From assembly GCF_030013595.1 (NCBI RefSeq), contig NZ_CP122768.1: 64,000 nt of DNA, one strand, 5' to 3'. Both the position numbers and the translations under genes were made by a program. This DNA is from Escherichia coli. GTDB lineage: Bacteria; Pseudomonadota; Gammaproteobacteria; Enterobacterales; Enterobacteriaceae. The first letter of the stretch is position 1; each line of letters starts with the position of its first letter. Below the pieces are notes generated by a model. It saw nothing but the letters and a program-made list of their open reading frames with translations, searched no databases and was not told where the DNA came from. Positions 3,954 through 48,601 of the stretch are shown in pieces.

Positions 3954-3973
3954 TTTCAAAATATTCCGCTATT

Positions 3974-4442: not shown

Positions 4443-4498
4443 TTAACCCCTTGTAATTCATCGCCATAATTGATTTAATTCACAAATAAAACTATAAC

Positions 4499-5167
4499 AT
4501 GGTGAAATTAATGAAAAAAAACACAGATGATGGGGCTAAAATTTACACACCACTTACCCTAAAGCTTTATGACTGGTGGGTTTTGGGAGTATCAAATCGG
4601 CTTGCATGGGGATGTCCTACAAAGGAACACCTTCTTCCACACTTTCTGGAACATTTAGGTAACAACCATCTGGATATTGGTGTTGGAACTGGGTTTTACC
4701 TTACTCACGTACCTGAGAGTAGTCTGATATCTTTAATGGATTTGAACGAAGCTAGCCTGAACGCGGCATCTACAAGGGCTGGGGAATCAAAAATTAAACA
4801 TAAAATTAGCCATGATGTTTTTGAACCTTATCCCGCGGCGTTACATGGTCAATTTGATTCCATTTCCATGTTTTACCTTCTTCACTGCCTGCCTGGAAAT
4901 ATATCTACAAAAAGCTGTGTAATACGCAATGCGGCGCAGGCCTTAACTGACGATGGAACTCTATACGGAGCCACAATTCTTGGCGATGGAGTTGTGCACA
5001 ATAGCTTCGGTCAAAAACTGATGCGCATTTACAATCAGAAAGGCATCTTTTCAAACACAAAAGATTCCGAAGAAGGCTTAACACATATACTCTCAGAGCA
5101 TTTCGAGAATGTTAAAACCAAGGTTCAAGGTACTGTAGTAATGTTTTCCGCTTCAGGGAAAAAATAG
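4499..5167 (+). CDS. Class I SAM-dependent methyltransferase (YbcY-like)
   Basis: 222-aa ORF with the glycine-rich SAM-binding motif DIGVGTG; same position as ybcY between tfa copies in DLP12. Confidence 0.7.
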   Translation: MVKLMKKNTDDGAKIYTPLTLKLYDWWVLGVSNRLAWGCPTKEHLLPHFLEHLGNNHLDIGVGTGFYLTHVPESSLISLMDLNEASLNAASTRAGESKIKHKISHDVFEPYPAALHGQFDSISMFYLLHCLPGNISTKSCVIRNAAQALTDDGTLYGATILGDGVVHNSFGQKLMRIYNQKGIFSNTKDSEEGLTHILSEHFENVKTKVQGTVVMFSASGKK

Positions 5168-5221
5168 CATCCAACCGCAGCACGTTCTTGCTTAAGACGT
5201 GCTGCGGCATAATCCCAATGA

Positions 5222-5806
5222 TTACTCCCTGACAGGGTTCGTAGGCCACTCAATATCAGGTGCAGTTGATGTATCAACACGGTTCAGCAACACCCGATAC
5301 TTTTTCCAGGCTTCCAGCAACGAGGTTTCTCCCTCCGTTGCGATTTCCAGATCTGCAGCATCCTGAAGTGGCGCAATATGCTCACTGGCTACCTGCATCA
5401 GGCTGTTTTTTGTTTCTTCCGCCTCCCGGATCCGGAACAGTTTTTCTGCTTCTGCATCTTTCACCCAGGTTGTGCCGTTCCACTTCTGAAACTCCCCTTC
5501 CGGGGATAACCAGGTGACATTTTCCGGTAATGAGCCGAGTTCAGAAATAAATAACGCGTCGCCGGAAGCCACGTCATAGACGGTTTTACCCCGATGGTCT
5601 TCAACGAGATGCCACGATGCCTCATCACTGTTGAAAACAGCCACAAAGCCAGCCGGAATATCTGGCGGTGCAATATCGGTACTGTTTGCTGGCAGACCTG
5701 TATGAGGCGGAATATATGCGTCACCTTCACCAATAAATTCATTAGTTCCGGCCAGCAGATTATAAATTTTTATGGTCCGTGGTTGTTCACTCATTCTGAA
5801 TGCCAT
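5222..5806 (-). CDS. tfa: Tail fiber assembly protein Tfa
   Basis: 194-aa ORF immediately downstream of stf; lambda Tfa-like sequence. Confidence 0.85.
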
Positions 5807-8800
5807 TATGCAAGCCTCACAATATAGTTAAATGCGATGTTTTTGACGGTGTTTTCCGCGTTACCAGCAGCGTTAACGGTGATGGTGTGTCCATGTGAGC
5901 CAATCGCAACCGAGTGCGTATGAGCACCAATACCGACAGTATGTGCGTGTGCACCTGCGCTTGCAGCAGTGCCGGACAGTGAGTGGGTATGTGCGCCAGC
6001 AGATGATGTTGCATAGTTTTGATTATGCACAACAGACAATCTTGTTGATGCACTACCAGCACCGGAGTTAGCACTAGCCGTGTTCACGTTGGCTAGTGAG
6101 TGTGTGTGTGCTCCAGCCGAGTTTGTAGAGCCGCTCACACTGTGTGTATGTGCCCCGGTGTTATTCGTAGATTTAGTGCCGTAATCAAACGACGATGTGG
6201 TTTTCGTACCCAAATCCGTACTTGATGCGCTGGCGCTGTGGGTGTGCGATTTAATGCCGTCCTGTTCCTGAGACAATACGGCACGACCACTGGCGGGCTT
6301 GCCCTTAATCGTCCAGCCACGCATATCAGGGATCACGCCTGACGGATAAGCAACTGCAAGTTTCGGGTATGCAGATTTGTCAAAAGTCTGCCCCTGCATC
6401 AGGGCATAACCAGACGGAACGGTATCTGATGGCCACGGAATTGGTGCGCCAACTGGGTAGCTTTCTGGTGGAAGATTTTTCGAGGTATAAACTTCTGCCC
6501 AGCCTTCCTCAAAACCATAGCCATCTCTTGAGGAACGGTAGAACAGACCTCCATTTCTGTAATGCGCCTTCATCTGCAGGGTCCGGCAACTTCCGACTCC
6601 GGTATAGAAGTTAACCAGAATATAGCTGTCGCCAGAGCGGGTGACATTGTAAGCGCCTGATTCGGCATTCCAGGGAACGCCACCATCCGCATCGGCATAT
6701 GTATCCGTTGCCCTTCTGGCAAAAGCAGCCACATGCGCGGCGGTTAAAGTAATATCTTTTGAACCATCAAACTCAACCCCAGAAACCAGTCTTGGCGTTT
6801 GCAGCTTTGTTGCTGTCAATGCGTTACCGTTCAGACTTGCAGACAGTTTGGTTCCAATAACCAGTTCGCCGGTTGCGTTATCAATAGCAAACGGTCTTAA
6901 TGTATTCCAGCCACCATAAACATCACCTTGATTGGTAAGCAGCAGGTAAGTTTTAGCGCCATCATTACGCCATAATGCCCCATACTCCCCACCTATCATT
7001 CGAATCTGATTACCACCACGCGCTACAATTTCGTCTGTGGCAAAAAGTTTTTTGCACGACAAGTTATCGTTAACGATTAACGAATGGGACTCATAAAAAC
7101 CACGCCCACTCTTAAAATCAAGGATAACGTCCGCCGCGATACATTCAGTCGCTGGAATTGTTGCCCCAAACTTATAGGTCGTATCATTAACAACGAGATC
7201 AGCACCAGGTGCGGATATTGACAGGCCATCTTCGATAAACGCAAAAACAGGGAAAGCAGCGCCATCAACATAGAACACAGAGCGCAAATCATCGCCCTTA
7301 TTACTCATCATTATTGAGTGGATGGCTCGTTCATTGTTTTGATATTGCCAGAACATTCCATAAGCATAACGCCCCCTGTCAGTCCAGCCACCAGGCATAA
7401 CAAATCCGTTAAACTCGCAGTTATTCATCGGATCGCCTGCGGTTCGCGTTGCCGTGGTGATAATGACCCTTGATGCCAGTTCGCTTACTGAGCCAGCAGA
7501 ACGCATAACAACAACAGGGTAATATTTTCCAGATGTTGCACCTGCAGGAGCGTTAACCCGCACATAACGCATACCACGCTTATCAGCAAAGTCTGTTTTA
7601 CTGACCGCGTTAATGTTGTTCAGGAAGCGTCCCTTATCGGGTATATCAGCGCCGTTCTGGTCTTTCTGCAGACGTTTCTCTGCATTGTCATAGGCTGATT
7701 TTACTGACTTTGGCGTTGCCGCCAGCGTTTCAGACGTACTGTTGGTCGCACTGCTGAGCTGTACTATCCCCTTTTTCGTCGTACTTGCATCCTCAAGCGC
7801 CACGGCGGATGCAATATCCTCTGCCCGTTTAGCTGCTGTCTCGGCGCGCGTTGCCGCGGATTCCGCCGTACTTTTGCTCTGTGCTGCCGCTGTCGCACTG
7901 CCAGCAGCCTCTGTCGCCTTCGTGGATGCCGTCGTGGCGCTGCCCTTCGCTGCTGACGCCTGTCTGGTCGCCTCATCTTTTGAAGCAGACGCAGATGATG
8001 CCGATGACGCCGCCGAACTGGCGGACGATGCCGCTGCCGTTTTTGAGGATTCTGCGCTGGTTTCCGACGCTTTCGCGTTCGTTTCGGATGTCTTCGCTGC
8101 GGATGCAGACCTCGCTGCTGCGCTGGCCTGTTCAGCGGCTTCGCCAGCCTTCGTTGTGGCTGTTGAAGCGGACAATGCAGCGCTTTCTGCCGATTTTCCG
8201 GCGGCGGTGGCACTGGCTGAGGCCTGCCCGGCACTTGTTGACGCTGCACTGGCAGACGACGCAGCCGCTGTTTTTGAGCCTGCCGCAGCTGAGGCGCTCT
8301 GTCCCGCTGCCGTTTCAGAAGACCTGGCGTTCGTCTCGGACGTTTTTGCCGCCTTCGCGGAATTTCCTGCCGCCGTTGCCGAGGAAGCTGCACTACTGGC
8401 GCTCGAGGCTGCGCTCGTTTCTGATGATTTTGCAGCCTCTTTTGAGGCCGCCGCATCCCGGGCCGAGGTCGCAGCTTCTGATGCCTTCGTGGTCGCGGTG
8501 GATGCAGATGTGGCTGCTGATTGTTGTGACGCTGAAGCATTCGTTTCTGACGTTTTCGCCGCACCGGCACTGGTGGCCGCCGCGCTTTTTGAGGACTCTG
8601 CAGCGGCAGCACTTTTTGATGCTTCAGTGGCCTTTGTTGATGCCGTTCCTGCGCTGGAAGACGCTGACTGAGCCGACGAAGCGGCCTGTCCGGCTGACGT
8701 GCTGGCTGCGCGTGCTGAGCCTGCAGCATCAGTCGCATGGGTTGCCGCCTCACGGGCAGATGTGCCGGCATCGCCGGCTGACTTCTTCGCGGCTGCCGTG

Positions 8801-9165
8801 TTCTGTGCCACCACGGACGCGTTACGCGCCACCTCTTCCACCATCAGCTCAAAACGGCGCAGTGCCTCCGGACGGGCATCATCCTCCGTCATGGCACCGA
8901 GAAAATCATTCAGCGTACCGGGTCGGGAATCTTCATACACTGTGATAGTCCCGGCATGTGACGGCGGGAATCCTTCCACCAACAGAATAACGCTGTACTG
9001 ACCGTACTCAACGTCCATACTGTAACGCCCGGCTTCATCCGGATTTTCTGAGGCCAGCGTGTTCACCACCACCGTGGTGCTGTTACGTTTTGCTTTCAGC
9101 TGGATTGTGCAGTTCTGTACCGGTTTTCCTGTGCCGTCTTTCAGTACACCTGAAATCTTTACTGC
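5806..9165 (-). CDS. stf: Side tail fiber protein Stf
   Basis: ~1120-aa ORF; lambda Stf-like N-terminus ([12 protein letters not shown]); long Ala/Ser/Thr-rich repeat region; C-terminal GAHTHS histidine repeats. Confidence 0.85.
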
Positions 9166-9178
9166 CATATTCACCCCA

Positions 9179-9206
9179 CAAAAAAGCCCGCCTGAACCGG
9201 CGGGCT
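9179..9206 (-). terminator. Intrinsic terminator downstream of lom
   Basis: Hairpin agcccgcc-tgaacc-ggcgggct followed by a U-run on the minus strand. Confidence 0.65.
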
Positions 9207-9232
9207 GTCATAACACTGTGTTACCTGGCTAA

Positions 9233-9832
9233 TCAGAATTTATAACCGACACCCACGATGAACCCGTCAGTGCGCCAGTCACCGCTGCCGGAGCCTTCAT
9301 AAGCGACGTCAACGGCCACGGATTCGGTCGGGTTAAACTGCACGCCAGCTCCCCACGCCAGAGACGTGTTGCTGTGGCGACCGTCATCACTTCCGGTCAG
9401 CACATCGTGCGTTTTCCCCTTGTTGTCAGTTACGCGGATATAATCTCCGGAGAAAGTCGACACACGGCTGTAAGCCATACCCGCCATCGCATACGCGCTG
9501 AACCATTCATTCACGCGCACAGACGGCCCCGCCATCACGCTGAACCAGCGGTTACGCACGGAATCTTCATGCCAGCGGGTATCGCTGTAATGCGTTTTTT
9601 GCTCATCTTCAGCGTTGGTATAACTGAATGACGTAATCAGCCCCAGCGTGTCCGTAAACTCATAACGGTATTTCACGTTAATCCCGTTCAGATTATCGCT
9701 GCCGGGAGCGTTCGTACGGGCATGAAGATACCCTGCGCTCAGTGTGGCCTGCTGCTCAGACGCCCATGCAGGCGCACCGGATACGGCCAGACAGATGGCT
9801 GCGGACAAAATGGCTGCACAAACTTTACGCAT
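9233..9832 (-). CDS. lom: Lom-like outer membrane protein (Ail/Lom family)
   Basis: 199-aa ORF with signal peptide; C-terminus YEGSGSGDWRTDGFIVGVGYKF as in lambda Lom. Confidence 0.85.
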   Translation of the reverse strand: MRKVCAAILSAAICLAVSGAPAWASEQQATLSAGYLHARTNAPGSDNLNGINVKYRYEFTDTLGLITSFSYTNAEDEQKTHYSDTRWHEDSVRNRWFSVMAGPSVRVNEWFSAYAMAGMAYSRVSTFSGDYIRVTDNKGKTHDVLTGSDDGRHSNTSLAWGAGVQFNPTESVAVDVAYEGSGSGDWRTDGFIVGVGYKF

Positions 9833-9899
9833 AATTACCTCTCGCTTTTCTGCAATAAAAAAGGCGCCATTTCTGGCGCCCGTATATGGGTTATAAAAT

Positions 9900-12800
9900 T
9901 CAGCTGATACTGATGCCTGCGGTGGCTTTCTTCATCACCACAACCAGCAAATCGCTGATACTTGCTGTGGGATACCAGTTATTTACCAGCCATGCTGACA
10001 CCGAAAACTCCAGTGTCATGTGACCGTGACCGGCAGGCATATCAATAACACCACTGTAAATCAGCGTATTATCCAGCGCGGTACGGTTATAAATTTCAGC
10101 ACCGTTTTTCCGTACTATCAGACGGCATGAGGAGTAAATATCAGTATGCTCTTTCTCATGTTTAGCGCCGCTGAATGCCACCGCCGGAATAACAATCTGC
10201 CGGTCAAACGGCTGATCGTCATAAACCCTGACGGTGATGGTCCCTGATGGCCACCGTTCCGGTGCACGGGAGTCCCGGGGGAAAGCTTTGCCCACTGTTT
10301 TAACGAGATCGCCTTCAATCTGGTTCGCGGACAGTTTTCCCAGAACCCGACAGTTCTCGTTAATCGTGACGTTGTTGAGCGTCCCGGAGTTCGCATTCAC
10401 GTTACCGCTGATATCGGCATTTTTCGCCGTCAGCCGCCCGTCCGGTGTCAGGGAAAATGCCGGTGGATTTCCGCCGCTGGTAATGGTGGGAGCCGTCAGG
10501 CGTTTCAGGAACACGTCGTTCATGAATATCTGATCGCCCTGACCAACAAACATCGGCTTTGTGTTGCCATTCGCAGGATTAATCATCGCAATCCGGTCAG
10601 CAGCCAGAAGCACCTGACTCTGCATACCTGCTGGCGTATTCTCAATACCGGCTCCGATACCCGCAATATAAAGGCGTCCGTCCTTCATCTGCTGCAGTTT
10701 CACGGCCCACATGCTGTTCAGGTTATTATTTGTATCAACCTGAACTTTCTGTATCTGCTGGATTGCCGCGCTCTGATTTTCCAGTTTCTTATTGACGGTC
10801 TGTGTGATTTCATTGCTGACATCCGTAATGGACGTCCTGATTTCAGCCAGGTCAGGCGCAAGCTGATCGTTATCAATCTGCGTCCACAGCTCCTGAGCCA
10901 GATGGGTTTTCCCTATCTCGCCTTTGAAAAAATCCAGATAGCCGGATGCGTCATCACTCGGCTGACCGACAGCCTCCACGAATGCCGATTTGCCAACAGT
11001 GTTCACACTGCGAACGTAAAAATAATAATCATGGCCCGGCTTAATATTGATACTGGCAGCTATCCAGTACAGCGCCGTACCAAGATAGCGCGCTGTGGTT
11101 TCAACCTGCCTGATATCCGCAATCCGCTTTTCCGAGAACCAGAACTCAAACTGTACCGTCGGATCATAAACGGCAAGATGCGGCGTGGCGGTTATCTGAA
11201 AATAGCCCGGCGTCAGCTCAATCCGCGACGGTGCTGCCGGTGCGGCAATCCGGAACGATACCGATGCCGGATCGCCCTGCTGTCCCCACGCATTTACCGC
11301 CCGGACTGTCAGCCTGTAGTTCCCCAGCGCCAGCTGCCTGAAGCGGTATGTGGTTTCCGTCGTCCGGGCCGTGCTGACCAGCCGCTCACTGCCGTCATCG
11401 GCGGCCACGGTCAGGCGAAGCATAAAGCTCACACCCTTCACCACCTTCGGCGTGTCCCAGCGCGCCAGCACCTGATACTCCCCACTGTCTGCGGTGACTT
11501 CTGCGGTCAGGTGCTGCACCGCTGGCGGCGTGACACCATTCACCGTGCCGCTCTGGTCGCCGTCAAAGTGCGCCCCGTTATCCACGATGGCTTCTTTCTC
11601 CGGTACATGCTGCACGGCAGTGATGGCATACGTGCCGTCATCGTTCTCACGGATACTCACACAGCGGAACAGGCGCTGGCGCAACGTCGGCAGCTTCAGC
11701 CCCCACACGCTGTATTCTGCAACGCCGTCAGGAACACGGCTCACTTTCACCTTCACACCGTCGGTGACGGACTGAACCTCCACGCTGACCGGATTGCCAC
11801 TTCCGTCAACCAGGCTTATCAGCGTGGTACCGGAGGATGGCAGCGTGATTTCACGGTCGAGCGTCAGCGTCCGGGTCTGGCTGTTCACCGCCAGCACGCG
11901 CCCGCCGGTGCTGATACCGGCATAGTCATCATCGCAGATTTCAATGACATCGCCCGGCACATGGCGAAGCCCTTCTGCGCCCACGCTGAAATCCACGGTC
12001 TGCGTTTCCAGCAGTTCCGTTTTAATCAGCCACAGCCCGGCGCGGTGTGCCTGCCCCCGGCTGGTACAGCCAAAGGCATCCATCTTCGTAACATTACGAC
12101 CGTAACGGGCAATGGCCTGCGTATCTTCAACAAGCTCTGTCGCCGTCTCCCAGCCGTTATCCGGGTCAATCCAGTTCACCTCAACGGCATTATGGCGGTC
12201 CTTCAGGGCGCTGAAGCTGTAGCGGAACGGCGCGCCATCATCCGGCATCACCACATTACTGCGGTTATAGGTCCACACCTTATCCGACGGTCGGTCCTGC
12301 ACGAACGTCAGCGTCTGCCCGTTCCATACCGGCATACAGCGCATCGCCGAGCAGAAATCGCTGAGCACATCCCACGCCTTACGTTGTGTGGTCAGCCAGG
12401 CATTACAGGTGATGCGCGGCTCCGTGCCGCCAAAACCGTCCGGCACCGACTGGTCGCAGTACTGGCCGATGACATACAGCGCCCATTTATCCACATCTGC
12501 CGCACCAAGACGTTTCCCCATGCCGTAGCGCGGATGGGTCAGCATATCCCACAGACACCAGGCCATGTTGTTGCTGTATGCTGGCTTAAACGTTCCATCC
12601 CAGATACCGCTGTATTGCCGCGTCTGCGGGTTATAGTTCGACGGCACCTGCAGAATGCGCCCGCGCAGATGATAATTACGGCTCACCTGCTGGCTGCCGA
12701 ACTGCTCCGAGTCCACCTGCACGCCGACCAGTGCCGTGTTCGGGTAGCACTGTTTCACATCTATAATTTCGGTGTATGACGACCAGAGCGTTTTGTTCTG

Positions 12801-13379
12801 CAGCTGGTCTGTGGTGCTGTCCGGCGTCATCCTGCGCATCCGGATACTGAACGGGCGCGGCGGCAGGTTATCCACCACCACCGAGGCCAGATACTGCGAG
12901 GTGGTTTTGCCCTTAATGGTGATGTCTTTTTCCGTCACCCAGCCACCGTTACGTTGTATCTGAACCAGCAGGCGGACTTCCGATGGATTCCTGTCACCCT
13001 TTGAGGTGGTTTCCACCAGTGCCTGCACACCGAAGGTAAAGCGCAGTCGGTCGATGTTTGCCGACGTGATGGCGCGGGTGATCGGCGTGTCGTATTTCAC
13101 TTCCGTACCCAGCACCGTCTCGGAGCCGGAGGATTCAAATCCCTCCGGCGGAGTCTGCTCCTGCTCACCAGCCCGGAACACCACCGTGACACCGGCGATG
13201 TTGGTATTCCCCTCACTGTCCAGCACCGGCGTACTGTTCAGCAGCACGCTTTTTAATCCATCCACCGGACCTTCAATCGGCCCTTCACTGATGGCATCAA
13301 TCACACTCAGCAACTGCGTGGATTTCAGGTTGTCCTTCGCTTCGCGCGGGGTATGCCCCTTACTGCTGCCTTTACCCAT
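9900..13379 (-). CDS. J: Tail tip / host specificity protein J
   Basis: 1159-aa ORF in lambda J position between I and lom. Confidence 0.9.
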
Positions 13380-13439
13380 TCGTCACGCTCCATAAACGAC
13401 AAAACCGCCCGCAGGCGGTTTCACATAAAACATTTTTCA

Positions 13440-14111
13440 TCAGCGACCAATCACCACAACCTGACCACCATCACCTTCATCTGCTGTGCTGATCTCCTGA
13501 GATACCACCCGCGACCCCACACGCATTTCACCGTACAGAACGGGCAGGACATTGCCCTGGGCAACCATATTATCCAGTGAAGAAAAATAGGTGTTCTGTT
13601 TGCCGTTATCCGTTGTCTGTGTGCGGGGGGTTTTGGGTTTAGGGGCCAGCATCTGCGCCACACCACCGAGCACCATACTGGCACCGAGAGAAAACAGGAT
13701 ACCGGTCATACCACCGGCCCCAATGGCTGCCCCCCATGCTGCAAGGGTGGCTCCGGCAGTAAAGAATGATCCGGCAATGGCGGCAGCCCCCAGAACAATC
13801 TGGAATACGCCCCCTGACTTGGCCCCGGCGACTCTGGGAACAATATGAATCACAGCGCCGTCAGGCAGAGTCTCATGTAACTGCGCCGTTAACCCGGACG
13901 TGCTGACGTCCCGCCCGGCAATCCGTACCTGATACCAGCCGTCGCTCAGTTTCTGACGAAACGCCGGGAGCTGTGTGGCCAGTGCGCGGATGGCTTCAGC
14001 CCCCGTTTTCACACGAAGGTCGATGCGGCGGCCAAATCGTTGCAAATCCCCGTAAAGGCAGATGCGTGCCATTCCCGGTGACGCCAGAGGGAGTGTGTGC
14101 GTCGCTGCCAT
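13440..14111 (-). CDS. I: Tail assembly protein I
   Basis: 223-aa ORF, lambda gpI-like; overlaps K by 103 nt as in lambda. Confidence 0.9.
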   Translation of the reverse strand: MAATHTLPLASPGMARICLYGDLQRFGRRIDLRVKTGAEAIRALATQLPAFRQKLSDGWYQVRIAGRDVSTSGLTAQLHETLPDGAVIHIVPRVAGAKSGGVFQIVLGAAAIAGSFFTAGATLAAWGAAIGAGGMTGILFSLGASMVLGGVAQMLAPKPKTPRTQTTDNGKQNTYFSSLDNMVAQGNVLPVLYGEMRVGSRVVSQEISTADEGDGGQVVVIGR

Positions 14112-14752
14112 TTGTCGGTGTACCTCTCTCGTTTGCTCAGTTGTTCAGGAATATGGTGCAGCAGCTCGCTGTCACCACAGTAAATGGCGGCATGATTCGG
14201 CACCGATGAACCAAAACAGCACAGCAGCACATCGCCCGGCTGCGCCGCTGACAACGGCACCTGATACAGCCCTGTGGCCTCCAGATTATCCAGATAGAGA
14301 TTCTGACCGTTACGCCACCAGTCATCCTCGCGATGAAAATCCGGCATCTCAATCCCCGCCAGATGGTAAGCATCCCGGAACAGCGTGTAACAGTCCGTCA
14401 CCCCGTGCTCAAAGCGCCGCCCGGTGAGATGCGGCACACAGCGGAACTTGTGAATCGCCCCCCGGCAGACCAGCCACCACGGCAAATCACTCTGCACCTG
14501 CAGCCGCCGGTCAGCCTCACTCAGCCAGGGCAGACCACCGGGATGACTGTGGACCAGTGCCACAATCTCACCCTGCATCTCTGCCTGCAGCCAGTCCTCC
14601 GGAGCCATCCGGAAATAATCCTCCGGCTCACCGGAAATATTCACGCAGGGAAAATATCTTTCCCCCTCCGGCGCTCTCACCACGAAGCCGCACGACTCCG
14701 CTGGCGCACATCGCCGGGCGTGCGCCAGAATCGCTGATTCTGTCTCTGTCAT
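14009..14752 (-). CDS. K: Tail assembly protein K (NlpC/P60 + JAB/MPN)
   Basis: Lambda gpK-like; HSHP motif; start placed at the ATG 4 nt after the L stop (the ORF track extends to 14794). Confidence 0.8.
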   Translation of the reverse strand: MTETESAILAHARRCAPAESCGFVVRAPEGERYFPCVNISGEPEDYFRMAPEDWLQAEMQGEIVALVHSHPGGLPWLSEADRRLQVQSDLPWWLVCRGAIHKFRCVPHLTGRRFEHGVTDCYTLFRDAYHLAGIEMPDFHREDDWWRNGQNLYLDNLEATGLYQVPLSAAQPGDVLLCCFGSSVPNHAAIYCGDSELLHHIPEQLSKRERYTDKWQRRTHSLWRHREWHASAFTGICNDLAAASTFV

Positions 14753-14756
14753 GGGA

Positions 14757-15455
14757 TTACTGCGAAAGTTTGTTAATGGAAAGGAAGCCGCCAAAGTTGC
14801 CGACGTTATTGCGAAACTTACAGCCGCTCAGGCATTTGCTGCATTTATCCTTCGTGATATCGGACGTCGGCTGGTCATATTCATCCGCGACTGCCGGACC
14901 GTGATAACCGCACTCATCACCGCGATAGGTCCAGGTGCAGGTGTTGGCCAGCATGATACGTCCCGGAAAAACAGCGCCATCCGTTTCCGTCGGCGTGGAC
15001 AGTACAAAGGAGGCACTCACCGCGCTCAGTTCGCTGCACTGCTCGATGCGCCAGCGGCTGATCACCTCCTGCTCCGGATCGGCGTCACTGTTTCCGTTGA
15101 CGAAGTTCACCGCATCCAGAAAACGGGCGTAAACCTTACGCCGGACCACCGTTCCGCCGACCAGACTCTGCAGATCTTCCGCCATCCCGGTGACCATACC
15201 GTACAGGTTAGAAACCGTCAGCGTGGGGCGCGTACTGGTGCCTTTGCCATTCAGTTCAAAACCACTCCCCTGAATGGGATACGGCTGATACTGTCGCCCC
15301 TGCCAGGTGACCGGCACACCTTTTTCGTTCTGCTCATTACAGAAAAAATAACGTTCTCCACCGACCTCTGTCAGGTCGATTTCCCAGAGCACCACGCTGG
15401 CCGACTGCTCCGCACGGGTGCATTCATTCAGTGTTTCCTGCCGGATATCCTGCAT
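14757..15455 (-). CDS. L: Minor tail protein L
   Basis: 232 aa, lambda gpL-like. Confidence 0.9.
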   Translation of the reverse strand: MQDIRQETLNECTRAEQSASVVLWEIDLTEVGGERYFFCNEQNEKGVPVTWQGRQYQPYPIQGSGFELNGKGTSTRPTLTVSNLYGMVTGMAEDLQSLVGGTVVRRKVYARFLDAVNFVNGNSDADPEQEVISRWRIEQCSELSAVSASFVLSTPTETDGAVFPGRIMLANTCTWTYRGDECGYHGPAVADEYDQPTSDITKDKCSKCLSGCKFRNNVGNFGGFLSINKLSQ

Positions 15456-15784
15456 CAGTTCACCACCTGTTCAAACTCTGCGCTGAACTCAACACGCAGC
15501 ATACTGACCCGCGACGACCATTTTGCGCAGGTCACCTTTATCTGCCGCCACTCATAAGGCGGCGTCCACAGAAAGGCTTTCCAGCCCCCGTGCTCTTCCA
15601 GAAACGACTCCAGTACCGTGGCCTCCTCACGGGGGACAGAAAGCGTCACGCTGTACGTTTTCAGGTTGGCATTCAGCCCGGCAGGCGCTCGCTGGGAATA
15701 GCCATCACCAAAGCGCACCTTTCTTACAGAAGGGGCCGAAGCCACATCCATACCGGGTTTCACTTTCCAGCGGAAGGTTTTCAT
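15455..15784 (-). CDS. M: Minor tail protein M
   Basis: 109 aa, lambda gpM-like. Confidence 0.9.
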   Translation of the reverse strand: MKTFRWKVKPGMDVASAPSVRKVRFGDGYSQRAPAGLNANLKTYSVTLSVPREEATVLESFLEEHGGWKAFLWTPPYEWRQIKVTCAKWSSRVSMLRVEFSAEFEQVVN

Positions 15785-18342
15785 CGTCCACCTCCGGAGA
15801 ACAGTCCACCATCACGCATCTGTGTCTGAATTTCATCACGGGCACCCTTGCGGGCCATGTCATACACCGCCTTCAGAGCAGCCGGACCTATCTGCCCGTT
15901 CGTGCCGTCGTTGTTAATCACCACATGGTTATTCTGCTCAAACGTCCCGGACGCCTGCGACCGGCTGTCAGCCAGACTGCCCGGTGTACCGACATAACCA
16001 CCGGTGGCATAGCCGCGCATCAGCCGGTAGAGATTCCCCACGCCAATCCGGCTGGTTGCCTCCTTTGTGAAGACAAATTCACCACGGTGAACAATCCCCG
16101 CTGGCTCATATTTGCCGCCGGTTCCCGTAAATCCTCCGGTTGCAAAATGGAATTTCGCCGCAGCGGCCTGAATGGCTGTACCGCCTGACGCGGATGCGCC
16201 GCCACCAACAGCCCCGCCAATAGCGCTGCCGATACTCCCGACAATCCCCACCATTGCCTGCTTAAGCAGAATTTCTGTCATCATGGACAGCACGGAACGG
16301 GTGAAGCTGCGCCAGTTCTGCTCACTGCCGGTCAGCATCGCCGCCATATTCTGTGCAATACCATCAAAGGTCTGCGTGGCTGCACTTTTTACCTGCGACA
16401 TACTGTCCGTGGCGCTCTCTTCCCACTCACTCCAGCCGGACTTCAGGCCTGCCATCCAGCTCCCGCGAAGCTGGTCTTCAGCCGCCCAGGTCTTTTTCTG
16501 CTCTGACATGACGTTATTCAGCGCCAGCGGATTATCGCCATACTGTTCCTTCAGGCGCTGTTCCGTGGCTTCCCGTTCTGCCTGCCGGTCAGTCAGCCCC
16601 CGGCTTTTCGCATCAATGGCGGCCCGTTTTGCCCGTTGCTGCTGTGCGAATTTATCCGCCTGCTGCGCCAGCGCGTTCAGGCGCTCCTGATACGTAACCT
16701 TGTCGCCAAGTGCAGCCAGCTGGAGTTTGTACTCCAGCGTCTCATCTTTATGCGCCAGCAGGGATTTCTCCTGTGCAGACAGCTGGCGACGTTGCGCCGC
16801 CTCCTCCAGTACCGCGAACTGACTCTCCGCCTTCCACAAATCCCGGCGCTGCTGGCTGATTTTCTCATTTGCTCCGGCATGCTTCTCCAGCGTCCGGAGT
16901 TCAGCCTGAAGCGTCAGCAGGGCAGCATGAGCACTGTCTTCCTGACGATCGCCCGCAGACACCTTCACGCCGGACTGTTTCGGCTTTTTCAGCGTCGCTT
17001 CATAGTCCTTTTTCGCCGCCGCCATCAGCGTGTTGTAATCTGCCTGCAGAATTTTCCCGTCCTTCAGTGCCTTGTTCAGTTCTTCCTGACGGGCGGTATA
17101 TTTCTCCAGCGGCGTCTGCAGCCGTTCGTAAGCTTTCTGCGCCTCTTCGGTATATTTCAGCCGTGACGCTTCAGTATCGCTCTGCTGCTGCGCATTTTTG
17201 TCCTGTTGACTCTGCTGTTCAGCCTTCTTTCTCGCGGCTTCAAGCGCAAGACGGGCCTTTTCACGATCATCCCAGTAACGCGCCCGCGCTTCATCGTTAA
17301 CAAAATAATCATCCTTGCGCAGACTCCAGATGTCGTCCGCTTTCTTAAACGCAGCCTCTGCCTTAATCAGCATCTCCTGAGCGGTATCAGGACGACCAAT
17401 ATCCAGCACCGCATCCCACATGGATTTGAATGCCCGCGCTGTCCTGTCTGCCCAGGTCTCCAGCGTACCCATGTTCTCTTTCAGGCGGCGGGTCTGGTCA
17501 TCAAACCCTTTCGTCGCGGCCTCGTTCGCCGCCTGCAATGCCCCGGCTTCATCGCCGGAACGCTGCAACTGAGCAACATACGCAATCTGCTCCGCCGTCA
17601 CGTTATGGAACTGGCGTGCCATCGCTGTCAGCCCTGACGTCGGGTCTGTGGTCAGCTTCCCGAAGGCTTCAGCGACCTTGTCCACCTCCACGCCGGATGC
17701 AGAGGAGAAACGCGCCACACTCTGGCTGATGGATGCAATCTGAGCCTCACCGCTTACTCCCGCCTTAACCAGTGCGCTGAGTGACTCGCTGGTCTGGTTA
17801 AACGTCAGCCCTGCCGCCTGCCCGGCTCTGGACAGGACCAGCATACGATCTGCCGTCAGACCCGACTGATTGCCGGAAAGGACCAGCGTTTTGTTGAAAT
17901 CGGACAGGGTTGAGTTGCCCTGATACCAGGCATACGCCAGCGCACCGGTCGCCACCGCCAGCGAGGTGGCCCCGACCATCGGCAGGGTGATCGCACCGGC
18001 AAGCCCCCTGAACATGGGGATCATCCCGCCGAAGGAGTCCTTCACCTGACCACCCTGTTGCAGCAGGATCAGCCACGGACTTTGCCCGCCTGCAAGCTGC
18101 GTGGCCACGTCGGTGAACTGCGCAGGCAGCATACGCATGGCAGCTTTATACTGCCCGACGGAAATCCCCGCTTTCTGTGCAGCCAGCGCCTGTCGGCTCA
18201 GCGACTGTTCAACGACTGCCGCTGTTTTTTTCGCATCACTTTCCGTACCGGAAAAATGACGCCTGACTCTGGCCATCTGCTCGTCAAATCTGGCCGCATC
18301 CAGACTTAAATCAACGACCAGATCGCCTACCGGTTCAGCCAT
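15781..18342 (-). CDS. H: Tail tape measure protein H
   Basis: 853 aa, lambda gpH length and sequence. Confidence 0.9.
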   Translation of the reverse strand: MAEPVGDLVVDLSLDAARFDEQMARVRRHFSGTESDAKKTAAVVEQSLSRQALAAQKAGISVGQYKAAMRMLPAQFTDVATQLAGGQSPWLILLQQGGQVKDSFGGMIPMFRGLAGAITLPMVGATSLAVATGALAYAWYQGNSTLSDFNKTLVLSGNQSGLTADRMLVLSRAGQAAGLTFNQTSESLSALVKAGVSGEAQIASISQSVARFSSASGVEVDKVAEAFGKLTTDPTSGLTAMARQFHNVTAEQIAYVAQLQRSGDEAGALQAANEAATKGFDDQTRRLKENMGTLETWADRTARAFKSMWDAVLDIGRPDTAQEMLIKAEAAFKKADDIWSLRKDDYFVNDEARARYWDDREKARLALEAARKKAEQQSQQDKNAQQQSDTEASRLKYTEEAQKAYERLQTPLEKYTARQEELNKALKDGKILQADYNTLMAAAKKDYEATLKKPKQSGVKVSAGDRQEDSAHAALLTLQAELRTLEKHAGANEKISQQRRDLWKAESQFAVLEEAAQRRQLSAQEKSLLAHKDETLEYKLQLAALGDKVTYQERLNALAQQADKFAQQQRAKRAAIDAKSRGLTDRQAEREATEQRLKEQYGDNPLALNNVMSEQKKTWAAEDQLRGSWMAGLKSGWSEWEESATDSMSQVKSAATQTFDGIAQNMAAMLTGSEQNWRSFTRSVLSMMTEILLKQAMVGIVGSIGSAIGGAVGGGASASGGTAIQAAAAKFHFATGGFTGTGGKYEPAGIVHRGEFVFTKEATSRIGVGNLYRLMRGYATGGYVGTPGSLADSRSQASGTFEQNNHVVINNDGTNGQIGPAALKAVYDMARKGARDEIQTQMRDGGLFSGGGR

Positions 18343-24463: not shown

Positions 24464-28144
<3,681 letters not shown>

Positions 28145-28170
<26 letters not shown>

Positions 28171-28690
28171 TCAGCAACCCCGGTATCAGTTCATCCAGCG
28201 CGGCTGCTTTGTTCATGGCTTTGATGATATCCCGTTTCAGGAAATCAACATGTCGGTTTTCCAGTTCCGGAAAACGCCGCTGCACCGACAGGGGGATCCC
28301 GTCGAGAATACTGGCAATTTCACCTGCGATCCGCGACAGCACGAAAGTACAGAATGCGGTTTCCACCACTTCAGCGGAGTCTCTGGCATTCTTCAGTTCC
28401 TGTGCGTCGGCCTGCGCACGCGTAAGTCGATGGCGTTCGTACTCAATAGTCCCTGGCTGGAGATCTGTCTCGCTGGCCTGCCGCAGTTCTTCAACTTCCC
28501 GGCGCAGCTTTTCGTTCTCAATTTCAGCATCCCTTTCGGCATACCATTTTATAACGGCGGCAGAGTCATAAAGCACCTCATTACCCTTGCCACCGCCTCG
28601 CAGAACGGGCATTCCCTGTTCCTGCCAGTTCTGAATGGTACGGATACTCGCACCGAAAATGTCAGCCAGCTGCTTTTTGTTGACTTCCAT
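28145..28690 (-). CDS. nu1: Terminase small subunit Nu1
   Basis: 181 aa, MEVNKKQLADIFGASIRTIQNWQEQGMP as in lambda Nu1. Confidence 0.9.
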
Positions 28691-28867
28691 TGTTCATTCC
28701 ACGGACAAAAACAGAGAAAGGAAACGACAAAGGCCAAAAAGCCCGTTTTCAGCACCTGTCGTTTCCTTTCTTTTCAGGGGGTATTTTAAATAAAAACATT
28801 AAGTTACGACGAAGAAGAACGGAAACACCTTAAACCGGAAAATTTTCATAAATAGCGAAAACCCGCG

Positions 28868-28879
28868 AGGTCGCCGCCC
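28868..28879. other. cosN cohesive-end site within the cos region
   Basis: aggtcgccgccc is the reverse complement of the lambda 12-nt cohesive end GGGCGGCGACCT; the flanking ~190 bp match the lambda cosB region as recalled. Confidence 0.75.
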
Positions 28880-29078
28880 CGTAACCTGTCGGATCGCCGG
28901 AAAGGACCCGCAAAATGATAATAATTATCATCTACATGTCACAACGTGCATCTACGCCATCAAACCACGTCAAATAATCAATTATGACGCAGGTATCGTA
29001 TTAATTGATCCGCATCAACTTAACGTAAAAACAACTTCAGACAATACAAATCAGCGACACTGAATACGGGGCAACCTC

Positions 29079-29273
29079 ATGTCAACGAAGAACAGAACCC
29101 GCAGAACAACAACCCGCAACATCCGCTTTCCTAACCAAATGATTGAACAAATTAACATCGCTCTTGATCAAAAAGGGTCCGGGAATTTCTCAGCCTGGGT
29201 CATTGAAGCCTGCCGTCGGAGGCTAACGTCAGAAAAGAGAGCATATACATCAATTAAAAGTGATGAAGAATGA
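29079..29273 (+). CDS. YlcI-like small protein
   Basis: 64-aa ORF resembling DLP12 ylcI. Confidence 0.6.
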   Translation: MSTKNRTRRTTTRNIRFPNQMIEQINIALDQKGSGNFSAWVIEACRRRLTSEKRAYTSIKSDEE

Positions 29274-29437
29274 ACATCCCGCGTTCTTCCCTCCGAACAG
29301 GACGATATTGTAAATTCACTTAATTACGAGGGCATTGCAGTAATTGAGTTGCAGTTTTACCACTTTCCTGACAGTGACAGACTGCGTGTTGGCTCTGTCA
29401 CAGGTTAAGTAGTTTGAATGATTAGCAGTTATGGTGA

Positions 29438-29644
29438 TCAGTCAACCACCAGGGAATAATCCTTCATATTATTATCGTGCTTCACCAACGCTGCCTCAAT
29501 TGCCCTGAATGCTTCCAGAGACACCTTATGTTCTATACATGCAATTACAACATCAGGGTAACTCATAGAAATGGTGCTATTAAGCATATTTTTTACACGA
29601 ATCAGATCCACGGAGGGATCATCAGCAGATTGTTCTTTATTCAT
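29438..29644 (-). CDS. YbcW-like small protein
   Basis: 68-aa ORF resembling DLP12 ybcW. Confidence 0.6.
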
Positions 29645-32126: not shown

Positions 32127-32713
32127 AACCCCACCTCGCAGACAAAGCGGGTGTAAATTGAGGGAATACAACGTATCGCAAAAAAGCAGAAACGTAACTG
32201 ACTCCGAGTCAGTGAATAACTCAGGTATTGAGTTATCAGCTAATATCGAGACTCAAAAAATGGAAAAACCAGCTCGACGGCGGGTTTAAGCTGTGTGACG
32301 AAGTAACCACTCTTAACAGCATAACCAATTTTTTACGTACGTAAACCACTGAATGATATTTATGAGAATGCTACCGAGTGTTCAAAACATCACCACAAAT
32401 ACATAAGAAAACCTCAACAAATAACCAATAAATAATTTCCAGTGTTATTTTTAGCCGGTTTAAATTAAACAGACGAATTATAGAACCACCATAAATAACA
32501 GCCATTAATATAAATTAGCTAATAGATTTATTTTTGTTCAAATAAGAGCCATAAATAGGTTTCGATAGAAAAAGTTCAGATAAAAATAGAGATCTACTTC
32601 ACAAATTAAATGAGAAACTAAAACTTACATCTTGAAATAATCACATTGATTAGATGAATATTTATCGCGCAGTGACATCATTTTTTAATAATAGTTCAAA
32701 AAAAGGGCTCACG

Positions 32714-33811
32714 ATGAAAAAATTAACAGTGGCAATTTCTGCTGTAGCTGCATCAGTACTGATGGCGATGTCTGCTCAGGCAGCTGAAATTTATAATAAA
32801 GACAGTAACAAGCTGGATCTGTACGGGAAAGTTAATGCCAAGCACTACTTTTCCTCTAACGATGCAGATGATGGTGATACTACTTATGTTCGTCTGGGCT
32901 TCAAAGGCGAAACCCAAATCAACGATCAGCTGACTGGTTTCGGTCAGTGGGAATATGAATTCAAAGGCAACCGCGCTGAATCTCAAGGTTCCTCCAAAGA
33001 CAAAACCCGTCTTGCATTTGCAGGCCTGAAATTCGGTGACTACGGCTCAATCGATTACGGCCGTAACTACGGTGTAGCATACGACATCGGTGCGTGGACT
33101 GACGTTCTGCCAGAATTCGGTGGCGATACCTGGACCCAAACAGATGTGTTCATGACTGGTCGCACCACTGGTGTTGCAACCTATCGTAACAACGACTTCT
33201 TTGGTCTGGTTGATGGTCTGAACTTTGCTGCTCAGTACCAAGGCAAAAACGATCGTAGCGATTTCGATAACTACACCGAAGGTAACGGTGATGGCTTCGG
33301 TTTCTCTGCTACCTATGAATACGAAGGATTCGGTATCGGTGCAACTTATGCGAAATCTGATCGTACCGACACTCAAGTTAATGCAGGGAAAGTTCTTCCT
33401 GAAGTATTTGCTTCCGGTAAAAATGCAGAAGTTTGGGCCGCAGGTCTGAAATATGACGCTAACAACATTTACCTGGCCACTACCTATTCTGAAACCCAGA
33501 ATATGACTGTATTTGCTGATCACTTCGTTGCTAATAAAGCTCAAAACTTCGAAGCTGTTGCACAATATCAGTTCGATTTCGGTCTGCGTCCGTCCGTTGC
33601 TTACCTGCAATCTAAAGGTAAGGATCTTGGAGTATGGGGCGATCAGGACTTAGTCAAATATGTTGATGTAGGTGCAACCTATTACTTCAACAAAAATATG
33701 TCTACTTTCGTTGATTACAAAATCAACCTGCTTGACAAAAATGACTTCACTAAAGCACTCGGTGTAAGCACTGATGACATCGTTGCTGTAGGTCTGGTTT
33801 ACCAGTTCTAA
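32714..33811 (+). CDS. nmpC: Outer membrane porin NmpC (OmpD-like), intact
   Basis: 365 aa from [11 protein letters not shown]; general porin sequence ending in F; lies between Q and the lysis genes on the opposite strand, as in DLP12. Confidence 0.9.
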
Positions 33812-44708: not shown

Positions 44709-45079
44709 TGGAGCCATACAGCCTCACACTCGATGAGGCCTGTCAGTTTCTTAAGATATCCAGACCAACCGCCACCAACTGGATACGAACAGGCCGCCTA
44801 CAGGCAACACGTAAAGATCCAACCAAGCCAAAATCTCCTTACCTCACAACACGGCAAGCTTGCATTGCGGCGCTTCAGTCTCCGCTGCATACTGTCCAGG
44901 TGAGCGCGGGTGATGGCATAACAGAGGAAAGAAAATGTCACTCTTCCGCAGAAATGAAATATGGTATGCCTCGTATTCGCTCCCGGGCGGGAAACGAATT
45001 AAGGAATCTCTTGGCACAAAGGACAAGCGGCAAGCTCAGGAGTTGCACGACAAGCGAAAAGCAGAACTCTGGCGAGTAG
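44708..45079 (+). CDS. xis: Putative excisionase (Xis)
   Basis: ATG at 44708 overlapping the upstream stop (TAATG); N-terminal HTH-like region ([31 protein letters not shown]); overlaps the int start out of frame; the 3' end is uncertain. Confidence 0.5.
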
Positions 45080-46098
45080 AAAAGCTAGGGGATTTACCTG
45101 ATGTCACTTTTGAAGAGGCCTGCCTAAGATGGCTTGAGGAAAAAGCTGATAAAAAATCTCTCGATTCAGATAAAAGCCGGATTGAGTTCTGGCTTGAACA
45201 TTTTGAGGGTATAAGGCTTAAAGATATCTCGGAGGCAAAGATTTACTCTGCTGTAAGCAGAATGCATAACAGAAAGACGAAAGAAATATGGAAACAGAAA
45301 GTTCAGGCCGCCATCAGGAAAGGTAAAGAACCGCCTGTTTATGAACCAAAGCCAGTATCAACTCAGACAAAGGCAAAGCATCTTGCCATGATAAAGGCCA
45401 TTCTCCGTGCTGCAGAACGCGACTGGAAGTGGCTGGAAAAAGCGCCTGTCATCAAGATACCAGCGGTCAGAAACAAGCGAGTCAGATGGCTGGAAAAGGA
45501 GGAAGCAAAACGCCTTATTGATGAGTGCCCCGAACCACTGAAATCTGTCGTCAAGTTTGCGCTGGCAACTGGTCTGAGAAAGTCGAACATCATAAATCTG
45601 GAATGGCAACAAATCGACATGCAGCGACGAGTTGCCTGGGTGAATCCAGAAGAGAGCAAATCAAACCGCGCCATTGGTGTGGCGCTGAACGATACCGCCT
45701 GTAAAGTGTTGCGTGATCAAATAGGCAAGCATCACAAATGGGTGTTTGTACATACCAAGGCGGCTAAGCGAGCAGATGGAACATCAACGCCTGCGGTCAG
45801 GAAGATGCGCATCGACAGCAAGACATCATGGCTATCAGCTTGTCGTCGTGCAGGAATTGAAGATTTCCGTTTCCATGACCTCAGACACACCTGGGCAAGC
45901 TGGCTGATCCAGTCAGGCGTCCCATTATCTGTGCTTCAGGAAATGGGCGGATGGGAGTCCATAGAAATGGTTCGTAGGTATGCTCACCTTGCGCCTAATC
46001 ATTTGACAGAGCATGCAAGGAAAATAGACGACATTTTTGGTGATAATGTCCCAAATATGTCCCACTGTGGAATTATGGAGGATATAAAGAAGGCGTAA
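44935..46098 (+). CDS. int: Tyrosine integrase (DLP12 IntD type)
   Basis: 387 aa; C-terminal catalytic region with HDLRHT..Y; ends 16 bp from argU. Confidence 0.9.
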
Positions 46099-46113
46099 CT
46101 GATTGAATTGTAA

Positions 46114-46190
46114 TGGCGCGCCCTGCAGGATTCGAACCTGCGGCCCACGACTTAGAAGGTCGTTGCTCTATCCAACTGAGCTAAGGGCGC
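46114..46190 (-). tRNA. argU: tRNA-Arg (UCU) argU
   Basis: Reverse complement gcgcccttagctcagttggatagagcaacgaccttctaagtcgtgggccgcaggttcgaatcctgcagggcgcgcca is a cloverleaf with anticodon TCT and terminal CCA. Confidence 0.9.
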
Positions 46191-46432
46191 GTTGATACCG
46201 CAATGCGGTGTAATCGCGTGAATTATACGGTCAACCCTTGCTGAGTCAATGGCTTTTGATCTGGTTGCTGAACAAGTGAACGACCGCGTCTGATTTTCTG
46301 ATTTATTTCGCTATAGCGGCAAACAAACGTACATCGCTGCGCGTCTGAATCAAGAAAACTCGTATTTTCATGTATCAAAGTACAATTTCCCGCCCTAACG
46401 GAAAATTGTCCGATCCAATGAGACTGGTAACT

Positions 46433-47065
46433 ATGAAACCAACGTCGGTGATCATTATGGATACTCATCCTATCATCAGAATGTCTATTGAAGTTCTGTT
46501 GCAAAAAAACAATGAATTGCAAATTGTCCTGAAAACGGATGATTATCGCATAACCATCGATTATCTCCGAACCCGTCCTGTTGATTTAATCATTATGGAT
46601 ATAGACTTGCCCGGAACAGACGGTTTTACCTTCCTGAAAAGGATCAAACAAATCCAGAGCACAGTGAAAGTATTATTTTTATCATCGAAATCAGAATGCT
46701 TTTATGCTGGCAGAGCGATACAAGCTGGTGCTAACGGTTTTGTCAGTAAATGCAATGATCAGAATGATATTTTTCACGCCGTTCAGATGATCCTCTCCGG
46801 ATACACTTTTTTTCCCAGCGAAACGCTCAACTATATAAAAAGCAATAAATGCAGTACGAATAGTTCAACGGTCACGGTGCTATCTAATCGTGAAGTGACC
46901 ATATTACGTTATCTGGTTAGCGGATTATCCAATAAAGAAATTGCCGATAAGTTATTACTTAGCAATAAAACAGTTAGTGCGCATAAATCTAATATTTATG
47001 GCAAGCTAGGTTTGCATTCAATTGTAGAGCTTATCGACTACGCCAAATTATATGAATTAATATAA
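46433..47065 (+). CDS. fimZ: Response regulator FimZ (LuxR-family)
   Basis: 210 aa from MKPTSVIIMD; receiver domain plus LuxR HTH. Confidence 0.85.
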   Translation: MKPTSVIIMDTHPIIRMSIEVLLQKNNELQIVLKTDDYRITIDYLRTRPVDLIIMDIDLPGTDGFTFLKRIKQIQSTVKVLFLSSKSECFYAGRAIQAGANGFVSKCNDQNDIFHAVQMILSGYTFFPSETLNYIKSNKCSTNSSTVTVLSNREVTILRYLVSGLSNKEIADKLLLSNKTVSAHKSNIYGKLGLHSIVELIDYAKLYELI

Positions 47066-47067
47066 TA

Positions 47068-47583
47068 TTAATTGTAATTGATCATAAATATCGCATCCGC
47101 TTTCGCCACACCTGGCTGAACACCGCTGGCTAACGCTCGATAATTGGCAAAAAAGTTTAGTGTGACATTGCCATTTGCATCTACTTCCTCAGTCGGACTC
47201 GCCTCCCCCAGTGCGAGCCGGGAGCGATCGCTATTACGTAATTCGATGGCGACGGTTTGTGCCATTGCGGGATCATCCAGAGCCAGCAGGTTGGCATCAG
47301 ATGCCGGCGTTCCCGTAAATAAAATCGCAACTGAACCCGGAGGACATCCCTCCAGCCGCAGGCTAAAAGGGACGAGTGCCGTGGTATCGCCAGCGCTCAG
47401 TAATTGTGTCGTAGGCCATCTGCCTAAATCTACCGTCTTATCCTTATCCGCTGTGTTTACGGTACAGGAGAAATCAACAACGTTACCGTGCAAATTGATA
47501 TTAATCGTTCCTAAAGGGTCAACTGCCCATCCACTGGAACTCCACAGTAGCCCGCAGAAACAGCTAAAGAGTACTCTTCTCAT
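47068..47583 (-). CDS. sfmF: Fimbrial minor subunit SfmF
   Basis: 171 aa from MRRVLFSCF; fimbrial subunit. Confidence 0.8.
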   Translation of the reverse strand: MRRVLFSCFCGLLWSSSGWAVDPLGTININLHGNVVDFSCTVNTADKDKTVDLGRWPTTQLLSAGDTTALVPFSLRLEGCPPGSVAILFTGTPASDANLLALDDPAMAQTVAIELRNSDRSRLALGEASPTEEVDANGNVTLNFFANYRALASGVQPGVAKADAIFMINYN

Positions 47584-47593
47584 TCTCCGTACC

Positions 47594-48601
47594 TCATTGA
47601 TAATCGACGCGTAAATACCCCAGCGCGCTAAACGGCCCTTCGGTCGGTTTTTGACCGGTAATACTGATAGGCCAGGCGCGAAGTGTGACATTGGCTGCCG
47701 CAGCTGCATCCAGACGGAAAGGAATAACGCTATTGAGATCGTTAGGCGTGATCGGCGTATCGTTCTGATCGGCCACAATAAAACCTAAATCCTGATTGTC
47801 CGACACCATCGCCTGACCAGAAACGGCACTGGCTTCCAGACGCATTGTTAAATAAGCCTGCGCAGCAACATTCGTACATTTGATCGCAATGCTCTTGGTT
47901 TGCGGCATGACACCAGCTGGTCGATTCCCCGGCCCTGCCGCACTAAATAACGATGCGCCGATATCACCAAAATCAAATTCAACAATTTGCCCGGCATTTA
48001 ATTCGCAGTTTTGCGGTACTTCAACCCGGCCACCAAAACTAATGGTATAAACAGGTGTAACCAACGGATCGTTAGGCGTTGATGTCACATACACGGTAAA
48101 CATCACCTGTCTGGGGATCTCCACCATGTTAATAAAGGGACGAATAACCTTTAAACGAAATATCAAACGAGAATCCATCACCCCGAACGGAAGGTTTTGC
48201 GAAACGTTAGGATCTGTTCCCATACGGATATAATTTTGCGGGGGAAACTGAATATCCATCACGCTATCAACCAGACTCATCGCACCTAATAGATAATCAT
48301 TTAATTGCATATATTTATAATTATCGATAGTTTCCTGAACAATAAAGTTGGTGACATAACTACGGTATGTATAATTCACCAGCGTGCCGGGTGGACAAAT
48401 TGCTGACACACCTACCCAGCCGGATTTTTCCGGTAAAACAACAATCTGGCCTGGCTGGTTATTGGTGCTATTAAAGACATTTGAGAGATCATAGTGTTCA
48501 TCTTCTGCTACGCCAGTACTATTTGCACAAACAGTAGCCCAGGATATGTTTGCCAGACACAAACATGCCATTGCCAATAATAATCTGCAGATTATCTTCA
48601 T
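47594..48601 (-). CDS. sfmH: Fimbrial adhesin-like protein SfmH
   Basis: 335-aa ORF with signal peptide. Confidence 0.8.
   Translation of the reverse strand: MKIICRLLLAMACLCLANISWATVCANSTGVAEDEHYDLSNVFNSTNNQPGQIVVLPEKSGWVGVSAICPPGTLVNYTYRSYVTNFIVQETIDNYKYMQLNDYLLGAMSLVDSVMDIQFPPQNYIRMGTDPNVSQNLPFGVMDSRLIFRLKVIRPFINMVEIPRQVMFTVYVTSTPNDPLVTPVYTISFGGRVEVPQNCELNAGQIVEFDFGDIGASLFSAAGPGNRPAGVMPQTKSIAIKCTNVAAQAYLTMRLEASAVSGQAMVSDNQDLGFIVADQNDTPITPNDLNSVIPFRLDAAAAANVTLRAWPISITGQKPTEGPFSALGYLRVDYQ

Follow-up and report, generated by a model that had tools for sequence, protein, structure and literature searches.

Does the DNA directly upstream of the Nu1 gene in this Escherichia coli prophage form a complete cos site with the packaging specificity of bacteriophage lambda, or does it have only the cohesive end in common with lambda? 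The question was raised by a preliminary description of the window (the whole stretch of DNA analysed here, 64,000 nucleotides), which had placed the reverse complement of the 12-nt lambda cohesive end at 28868-28879. We find this sequence, GGGCGGCGACCT, exactly there on the minus strand, where it is identical to the lambda cohesive end and is the single exact copy in the 64-kb window. In 100 dinucleotide-preserving shuffles of the window it occurred 0 times, so none is expected by chance. A chance 12-mer without a packaging role was rejected on these grounds and because about 20 kb of collinear lambda homology surrounds the site. With the evidence described below, we regard it as highly probable that the feature is the lambda-type cos site of a mosaic lambdoid prophage.

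A 47-bp exact direct repeat marks the two ends of the prophage, and the att-to-att length is 45,252 bp (Table 1). This is 93% of the length of lambda and lies inside the lambda packaging range of approximately 78-105% of lambda length. The flanking fimZ/sfm genes, together with intD in E. coli genomes, place the element at the argU/DLP12 attachment site. The element is collinear with lambda over bp 1-18002 at 97.3% identity and over bp 45967-48502 at 98.3%, and its packaging and head-tail module is that of lambda itself. The DNA of the early region bears no relation to lambda, and the prophage encodes an S24 repressor, a CII-like protein, a Dam-type methylase, KilA-N and DUF968 proteins and a porin (Pfam). 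When lambda proteins were used as tblastn queries, Nu1, W, B, C, D, E, FI, FII, Z, U, V, G, T, H, M, L, K, I and J were all found at full length and without stops, and A is the sole interrupted gene among the lambda morphogenesis genes from Nu1 to J.

Several other features of the element were observed along the way. The host-range genes (window 9233-13379 and 5806-9174, minus strand) diverge from lambda, with J at 83% and the Lom homologue at only 44% identity and mosaic side tail-fibre genes; elsewhere in the late module the identity is 96-100%. The porin gene (32654-33811, plus strand; full length, Pfam Porin_1, E=2e-156) adjoins the lysis genes on the opposite strand; in the prophage of E. 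coli QEC11-421 a porin gene lies between Q (quuD) and the lysis genes. The stretch from the tail-fibre assembly gene (5222-5806) to the distal repeat holds an omptin (ompT-like) gene at 1329-2282, an alpha/beta hydrolase gene at 2469-3953, a tfa fragment at 4212-4364 and a methyltransferase gene at 4499-5167, which could be cargo or the remnants of an older element. A match to the Rfam family IS009 (RF02111) at 5265-5463 (minus strand; 225.7 bits, above the gathering score) lies inside the tail-fibre assembly gene.

Table 1. Coordinates of the cos subsites, the terminase genes and the ends of the prophage in the window.
Feature	Position	Strand	Remarks
att repeat, distal end	860-906		copy of the 3' part of tRNA-Arg(UCU)
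A (TerL), large terminase subunit	26245-28170	-	641 codons as in lambda; in-frame TAG at codon 443
Nu1 (TerS), small terminase subunit	28145-28690	-	181 aa; Pfam Phage_Nu1 E=3.9e-101, full length
R1, accessory TerS site	28715-28730	-	TTGTCGTTTCCTTTCT versus lambda CTGTCGTTTCCTTTCT; 15/16, first base (bp 151) C>T
R2, inverted TerS site	28756-28771	-	AGAAAGGAAACGACAG; 16/16, identical to lambda
I1 core, predicted IHF bending site	28789-28801	+	lambda bp 79-91, between R3 and R2
R3, TerS (Nu1) site	28816-28831	-	AAGGTGTTTCCGTTCT versus lambda AAGGCGTTTCCGTTCT; 15/16, bp 53 C>T
I2	28830-28862	-	lambda bp 18-50, 33/33 identical
cosN (~22 bp)	28863-28884	-	all 22 bp identical to lambda; contains the cohesive end 28868-28879
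cosQ heptamer GGGTCCT	28903-28909	-	lambda bp 48473-48479, same sequence and spacing
Integrase gene	44935-46098	+	Pfam Phage_integrase; adjoins the att repeat at 46112-46158
att repeat within tRNA-Arg(UCU)	46112-46158		exact repeat of 860-906
tRNA-Arg(UCU) (argU)	46114-46190	-	ARAGORN and Rfam

We aligned the end-joint of the lambda genome (NC_001416, bp 48103-48502 followed by bp 1-300) with the reverse complement of window positions 28580-29280. The two sequences are collinear, lambda bp 1 corresponding to window position 28879 and lambda bp 48502 to 28880. From the cohesive end toward Nu1, the window agrees with lambda at every base of bp 1-52, and bp 1-190 contain six substitutions (bp 53, 73, 102, 134, 137 and 151), all of them before the Nu1 ATG. 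On the other side, lambda bp 48403-48502 contain nine (48427, 48429, 48430, 48432, 48444, 48459, 48467, 48471 and 48486). This comparison with the two ends of lambda, which the preliminary description had named as one way to check its reading, left the cohesive end without a mismatch. Over the 238-bp working cos fragment of Feiss's laboratory (lambda 48446-182, window 28699-28936) the identity is 95.8%, with 0 indels and 10 substitutions, namely the six on the Nu1 side and four between 48459 and 48486. None of them falls in the cohesive end, cosQ, I2, R2 or R3 bp 55-63, and the order, orientation and spacing of the subsites are the same as in lambda. The earlier observation that the flanks match lambda cosB is thus borne out over a gapless alignment with every subsite in the lambda register.

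The count of indels depends on one base of the reference. An apparent 1-bp deletion at lambda bp 137/138 (window 28743-28745) is caused by an extra G138 in NC_001416 and is not a feature of the window: DE3, Turner, mEp332, 2H10 and the QEC11-421 prophage all lack this base, as does the window, and among the fetched loci the motif lacking G138 was found 59 times and the NC_001416 form 0 times. Since G138 is peculiar to NC_001416, it was discounted and the 238-bp fragment is free of indels. The same base imitates a 1-bp deletion in any alignment to that record.

The subsites were assigned according to the definitions of Feiss and co-workers (PMC4669245, PMC4856287, PMC9026076). Together they form a complete cosQ-cosN-I2-cosB array directly before the Nu1 gene, as expected from the initial placement of the site upstream of Nu1. 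The interval first proposed for it, 28690-28900, starts at the first base of the Nu1 ATG (28690), which is directly downstream of cos, and covers cosB and cosN, but it ends three bases short of cosQ. The GGGTCCT heptamer of cosQ is located 24-30 bp upstream of the position of the top-strand nick, at what we take to be the published lambda coordinates of cosQ (bp 48473-48479; Wieczorek and Feiss 2001), and these coordinates are consistent with the aligned sequence. Two further observations concern this side of the site. An imperfect 17-nt direct repeat (71% identical, 28860-28876 and 28883-28899) flanks the cosN top-strand nick; it is present in lambda too and is probably due to chance or related to symmetry. 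About 170 bp beyond cosQ lies an ORF of the YlcI/YnfO family (DUF3950; 64 aa, 29079-29273, plus strand), which is also intact in lambda (48109-48303, complement; 1 aa different), where it is unannotated in NC_001416.

On the Nu1 side, cosN is followed by I2, an AT-rich, statically bent spacer between cosN and cosB that is essential in an early packaging step (PMC4856287), and the spacing from cosN to cosB is the same as in lambda. The cosB segment itself (28715-28831) has the three R sequences of the lambda-type architecture, R3 and R1 pointing one way and R2 the other. Searching for repeats de novo recovered the same arrangement, with R1 and R3 as a direct repeat, R1 and R2 as an inverted repeat with 26-nt arms, and R2 and R3 as an inverted repeat with 12-nt arms. 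The single change in R3, at bp 53, lies outside bp 55-63, which are contacted by TerS as determined by NMR (PMC9026076), and hence also outside bp 56, 58 and 59, the positions that set lambda apart from phage 21 or make the site dependent on IHF (PMC4669245). The single change in R1 affects a site with an accessory role (PMC4669245), and the substitutions at bp 134 and 137 fall in the spacer between R2 and R1.

An IHF site is placed between R3 and R2 in lambda cosB (PMC4669245, PMC4856287). At the corresponding position of the window, the predicted I1 core AATAAAAACATTA agrees with the IHF consensus WATCAANNNNTTR at 12 of 13 positions, although the scan for this consensus does not by itself exceed chance expectation (67 sites versus 54 expected across the window). 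Lambda bp 74-101, around I1, are identical in the window, and the substituted bp 73 and 102 flank it. An Rfam scan of the whole window and a promoter and terminator scan of 28500-29500 gave only weak consensus matches in cos; a terminator-like hairpin at 28731-28744 was rejected, as it is just the spacer between R2 and R1.

By analogy with lambda, we infer cleavage, IHF binding and packaging at this cos as follows. Nu1 dimers on R3 and R2, brought together by an IHF-enhanced bend at I1, would position gpA on cosN. gpA would introduce one nick per strand, between 28880 and 28879 on the minus strand and between 28868 and 28867 on the plus strand; this step requires a working gpA, and none is encoded by the prophage as sequenced. 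Terminase would then remain on the cosB-bearing end and translocate the DNA toward Nu1, that is, toward lower window coordinates, and packaging would be ended at the next cos of the concatemer by cosQ and cosN (for the role of cosQ, see PMC4669245 and PMC4856287). The site would in this way fix the ends of the virion chromosome and the direction of packaging, and it classes the prophage as a lambda-specificity cos phage and not as a headful packager.

The limitation on this scheme lies in A. The gene differs from lambda A at 27 of 1926 nt, and one of the differences turns the GAG codon of lambda at position 443 into TAG (E443 to stop; window 26842-26844, minus strand). The stop splits the match to the Pfam GpA_nuclease profile, with profile positions 2-124 before it and 141-286 after it. 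As the stop lies within the nuclease domain, the cognate TerL would not be expected to nick cosN, which concerns the function of the site in cis and not its identity. Since a product ending at the amber codon lacks the C-terminus and the distal half of the nuclease domain, the prophage as sequenced probably cannot cut its own cos or package its own DNA without suppression, recombinational repair or a helper terminase. The amber codon is the only point of practical consequence at this locus: it predicts that no particles are made by the prophage alone, while the cos would still be a substrate for the terminase of a lambda-type helper.

We then asked how widespread this allele is. Megablast with a 41-mer bearing the TAG gave no hit among 5426 complete E. 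coli genomes, and the GAG version, used as a control, hit 3209 of them; the 41-mer is centred on the T, so that megablast seeding is impossible unless that base is shared. An exact 34-mer bearing the TAG had 0 matches in the GTDB species representatives. Because it is absent from both collections, the TAG allele is private to the present sequence, and it may reflect either a mutation that inactivated A recently or an error in sequencing or assembly. A search of the window for a suppressor tRNA gave none, the sole tRNA being that for Arg-UCU. Among the matches listed in IMG/VR, 12 of 57 loci with a whole A beside an intact cos have a premature stop in the A frame, none of them at codon 443; this count is based on a crude fixed-frame translation in which nonsense mutations and frameshifts are not separated. 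Interrupted A frames beside an intact cos therefore do not look rare.

These results bear on the possibility that the cos is now a silent relic, an intact site beside a TerL truncated at residue 442, which at present does nothing in cis and could serve at best as a substrate for the terminase of a co-resident or superinfecting lambda-type phage. Such a state would qualify the identification of a lambda-type cos and would not contradict it. The split nuclease domain and the IMG/VR loci with interrupted A frames are in its favour, and helper terminase is plausible as well: a 3.1-kb block comprising ylcI, cos, Nu1 and A has matches in 4640 of the 5426 complete E. coli genomes, the median number of places in a genome being two. 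Against it, the amber codon arises from one substituted base, and the 45-kb prophage is otherwise intact, with all its other lambda morphogenesis genes at full length; the absence of the TAG allele from the genomes searched means that it may be very recent or an error, and amber suppression by the host may occur. We consider the two sides evenly balanced. A narrower proposal is that the amber codon is genuine and that a prophage with a perfect lambda cos is helper-dependent and satellite-like, or is rescued by suppression or by recombination with another of the lambda-type terminase copies that are common in E. coli; this we hold to be possible but rather doubtful. None of the evidence speaks against the identity of the site as a lambda-type cos.

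How variable is the site among related phages? We scanned IMG/VR with the stretch from cosQ to R3, leaving two positions open, and retrieved at least 120 contigs. The individual variant bases of the window recur in such viral contigs. Among the matches listed, T at bp 53, as in the window, was present in 30 of 120 contigs, and C at lambda position 48486 in 107 of 120. Over the left 190 nt, again among the matches listed, the exact lambda sequence was found in 24 of 118 contigs and the exact haplotype of the window in 2, and at least 44 distinct haplotypes were distinguished. Variation can reach the cohesive end itself, as observed in phage PhiR70_1 (PV340577; host E. coli C according to the record), which has the variant cohesive end GGGCGGAGACCT, with bp 7 (aligned to window position 28873) changed from C to A, in an otherwise near-identical cos.

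Of the prophages compared, the closest is that of QEC11-421 (NZ_CP048821), which is 99.6% identical over the 3.1 kb of ylcI, cos, Nu1 and A and has the base of the window at every variable cos position. Its gene order is also the same (rzpD, bor, ybcV, ybcW, ylcI, cos, nohD, terminase). It differs in its location, adjoining dsdC and torI and not argU, and in that its terminase large subunit is annotated as intact. The record of a free phage genome, Lambda_2H10 (LR595862 / NC_049950, genus Glaedevirus), is 99.4% identical over 501 bp comprising cos and the Nu1 start, and wherever the cos varies among lambda, DE3, Turner, mEp332 and the QEC11-421 prophage, it shares the base of the window; its A was examined as far as the start of a CDS annotated as full length. 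Mathieu et al. 2020 (PMC6969025) plaque-purified the temperate coliphages that they sequenced. The name 2H10 was not found in the main text of that paper or in the other literature main texts searched, and it is the naming scheme of the record that suggests that Lambda_2H10 is one of these plaque-purified phages. The presence of the bp 53 change of R3 in phage 2H10 argues, with the reservation on its origin just given, that this change is tolerated. The feature is already known: it is the textbook lambda cos in one of the commonest E. coli prophage modules. Its use lies chiefly in annotation, and it offers no new biology, since a sequenced phage already has this cos haplotype and most complete E. 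coli genomes have matches to the surrounding block.

It remains to compare the site with cos sites that have lambda-like cohesive ends and a different specificity, as in phage 21, in N15 and Monarch, or in phage-inducible chromosomal islands (PICIs), whose cos is read by an Rpp-TerS heterodimer. As cosQ and cosN are common to all of them, the 12-mer by itself does not tell the types apart, and the decision falls to the R sites and to TerS. Here R2 is identical to that of lambda, R1 is changed at its first base only, and R3 at bp 53 only, so that its bp 56, 58 and 59 are unchanged. Nu1 is identical to the lambda protein at 179 of 181 residues, the differences being A75T and L132I, and residues 1-74 are those of lambda, including the winged helix-turn-helix solved in 1J9I and the recognition-helix residues 20 and 24. 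The protein matches two solved domains, PDB 1J9I over residues 1-68 and 6HN7 over residues 1-98. A phage 21 type is set apart indirectly, by the lambda identity of Nu1 residues 1-74 and of R3 bp 55-63, and not by comparison with the phage 21 sequence itself.

N15 resembles the present site in its 5' cohesive end, which is 12 nt long and belongs to the lambda family, and in the layout from cosN to R3 (PMC4669245). However, it differs at bp 9 and 12 of the cohesive end; the first 70 bp of the left end in the window match lambda at 69 positions and N15 at only 43, and the DNA-binding domain of TerS is unrelated to that of N15 (7 of 55 residues identical). N15 also has a simple cosB with a single R3, whereas the cosB of the window is complex and tripartite. 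The cos sites of Gram-negative PICIs, such as the E. coli CFT073 island, PICI-A, have cosQ and cosN nearly identical to those of lambda-like helpers, but they lack the R repeats and I1 and are followed by rpp (PMC9026076), whereas here R3, R2 and R1 are followed by Nu1 and A in a 45-kb prophage. A specificity other than that of lambda is accordingly very improbable. Altogether, the R sites, the identity of Nu1 residues 1-74, the contrast with N15 and the cos haplotype shared with Lambda_2H10 support, at the level of sequence comparison, the lambda packaging specificity first suggested for this locus, for the DNA site and TerS alike. Set beside lambda itself, the site is the same in its cohesive end, cosQ, cosN, I2 and R2.
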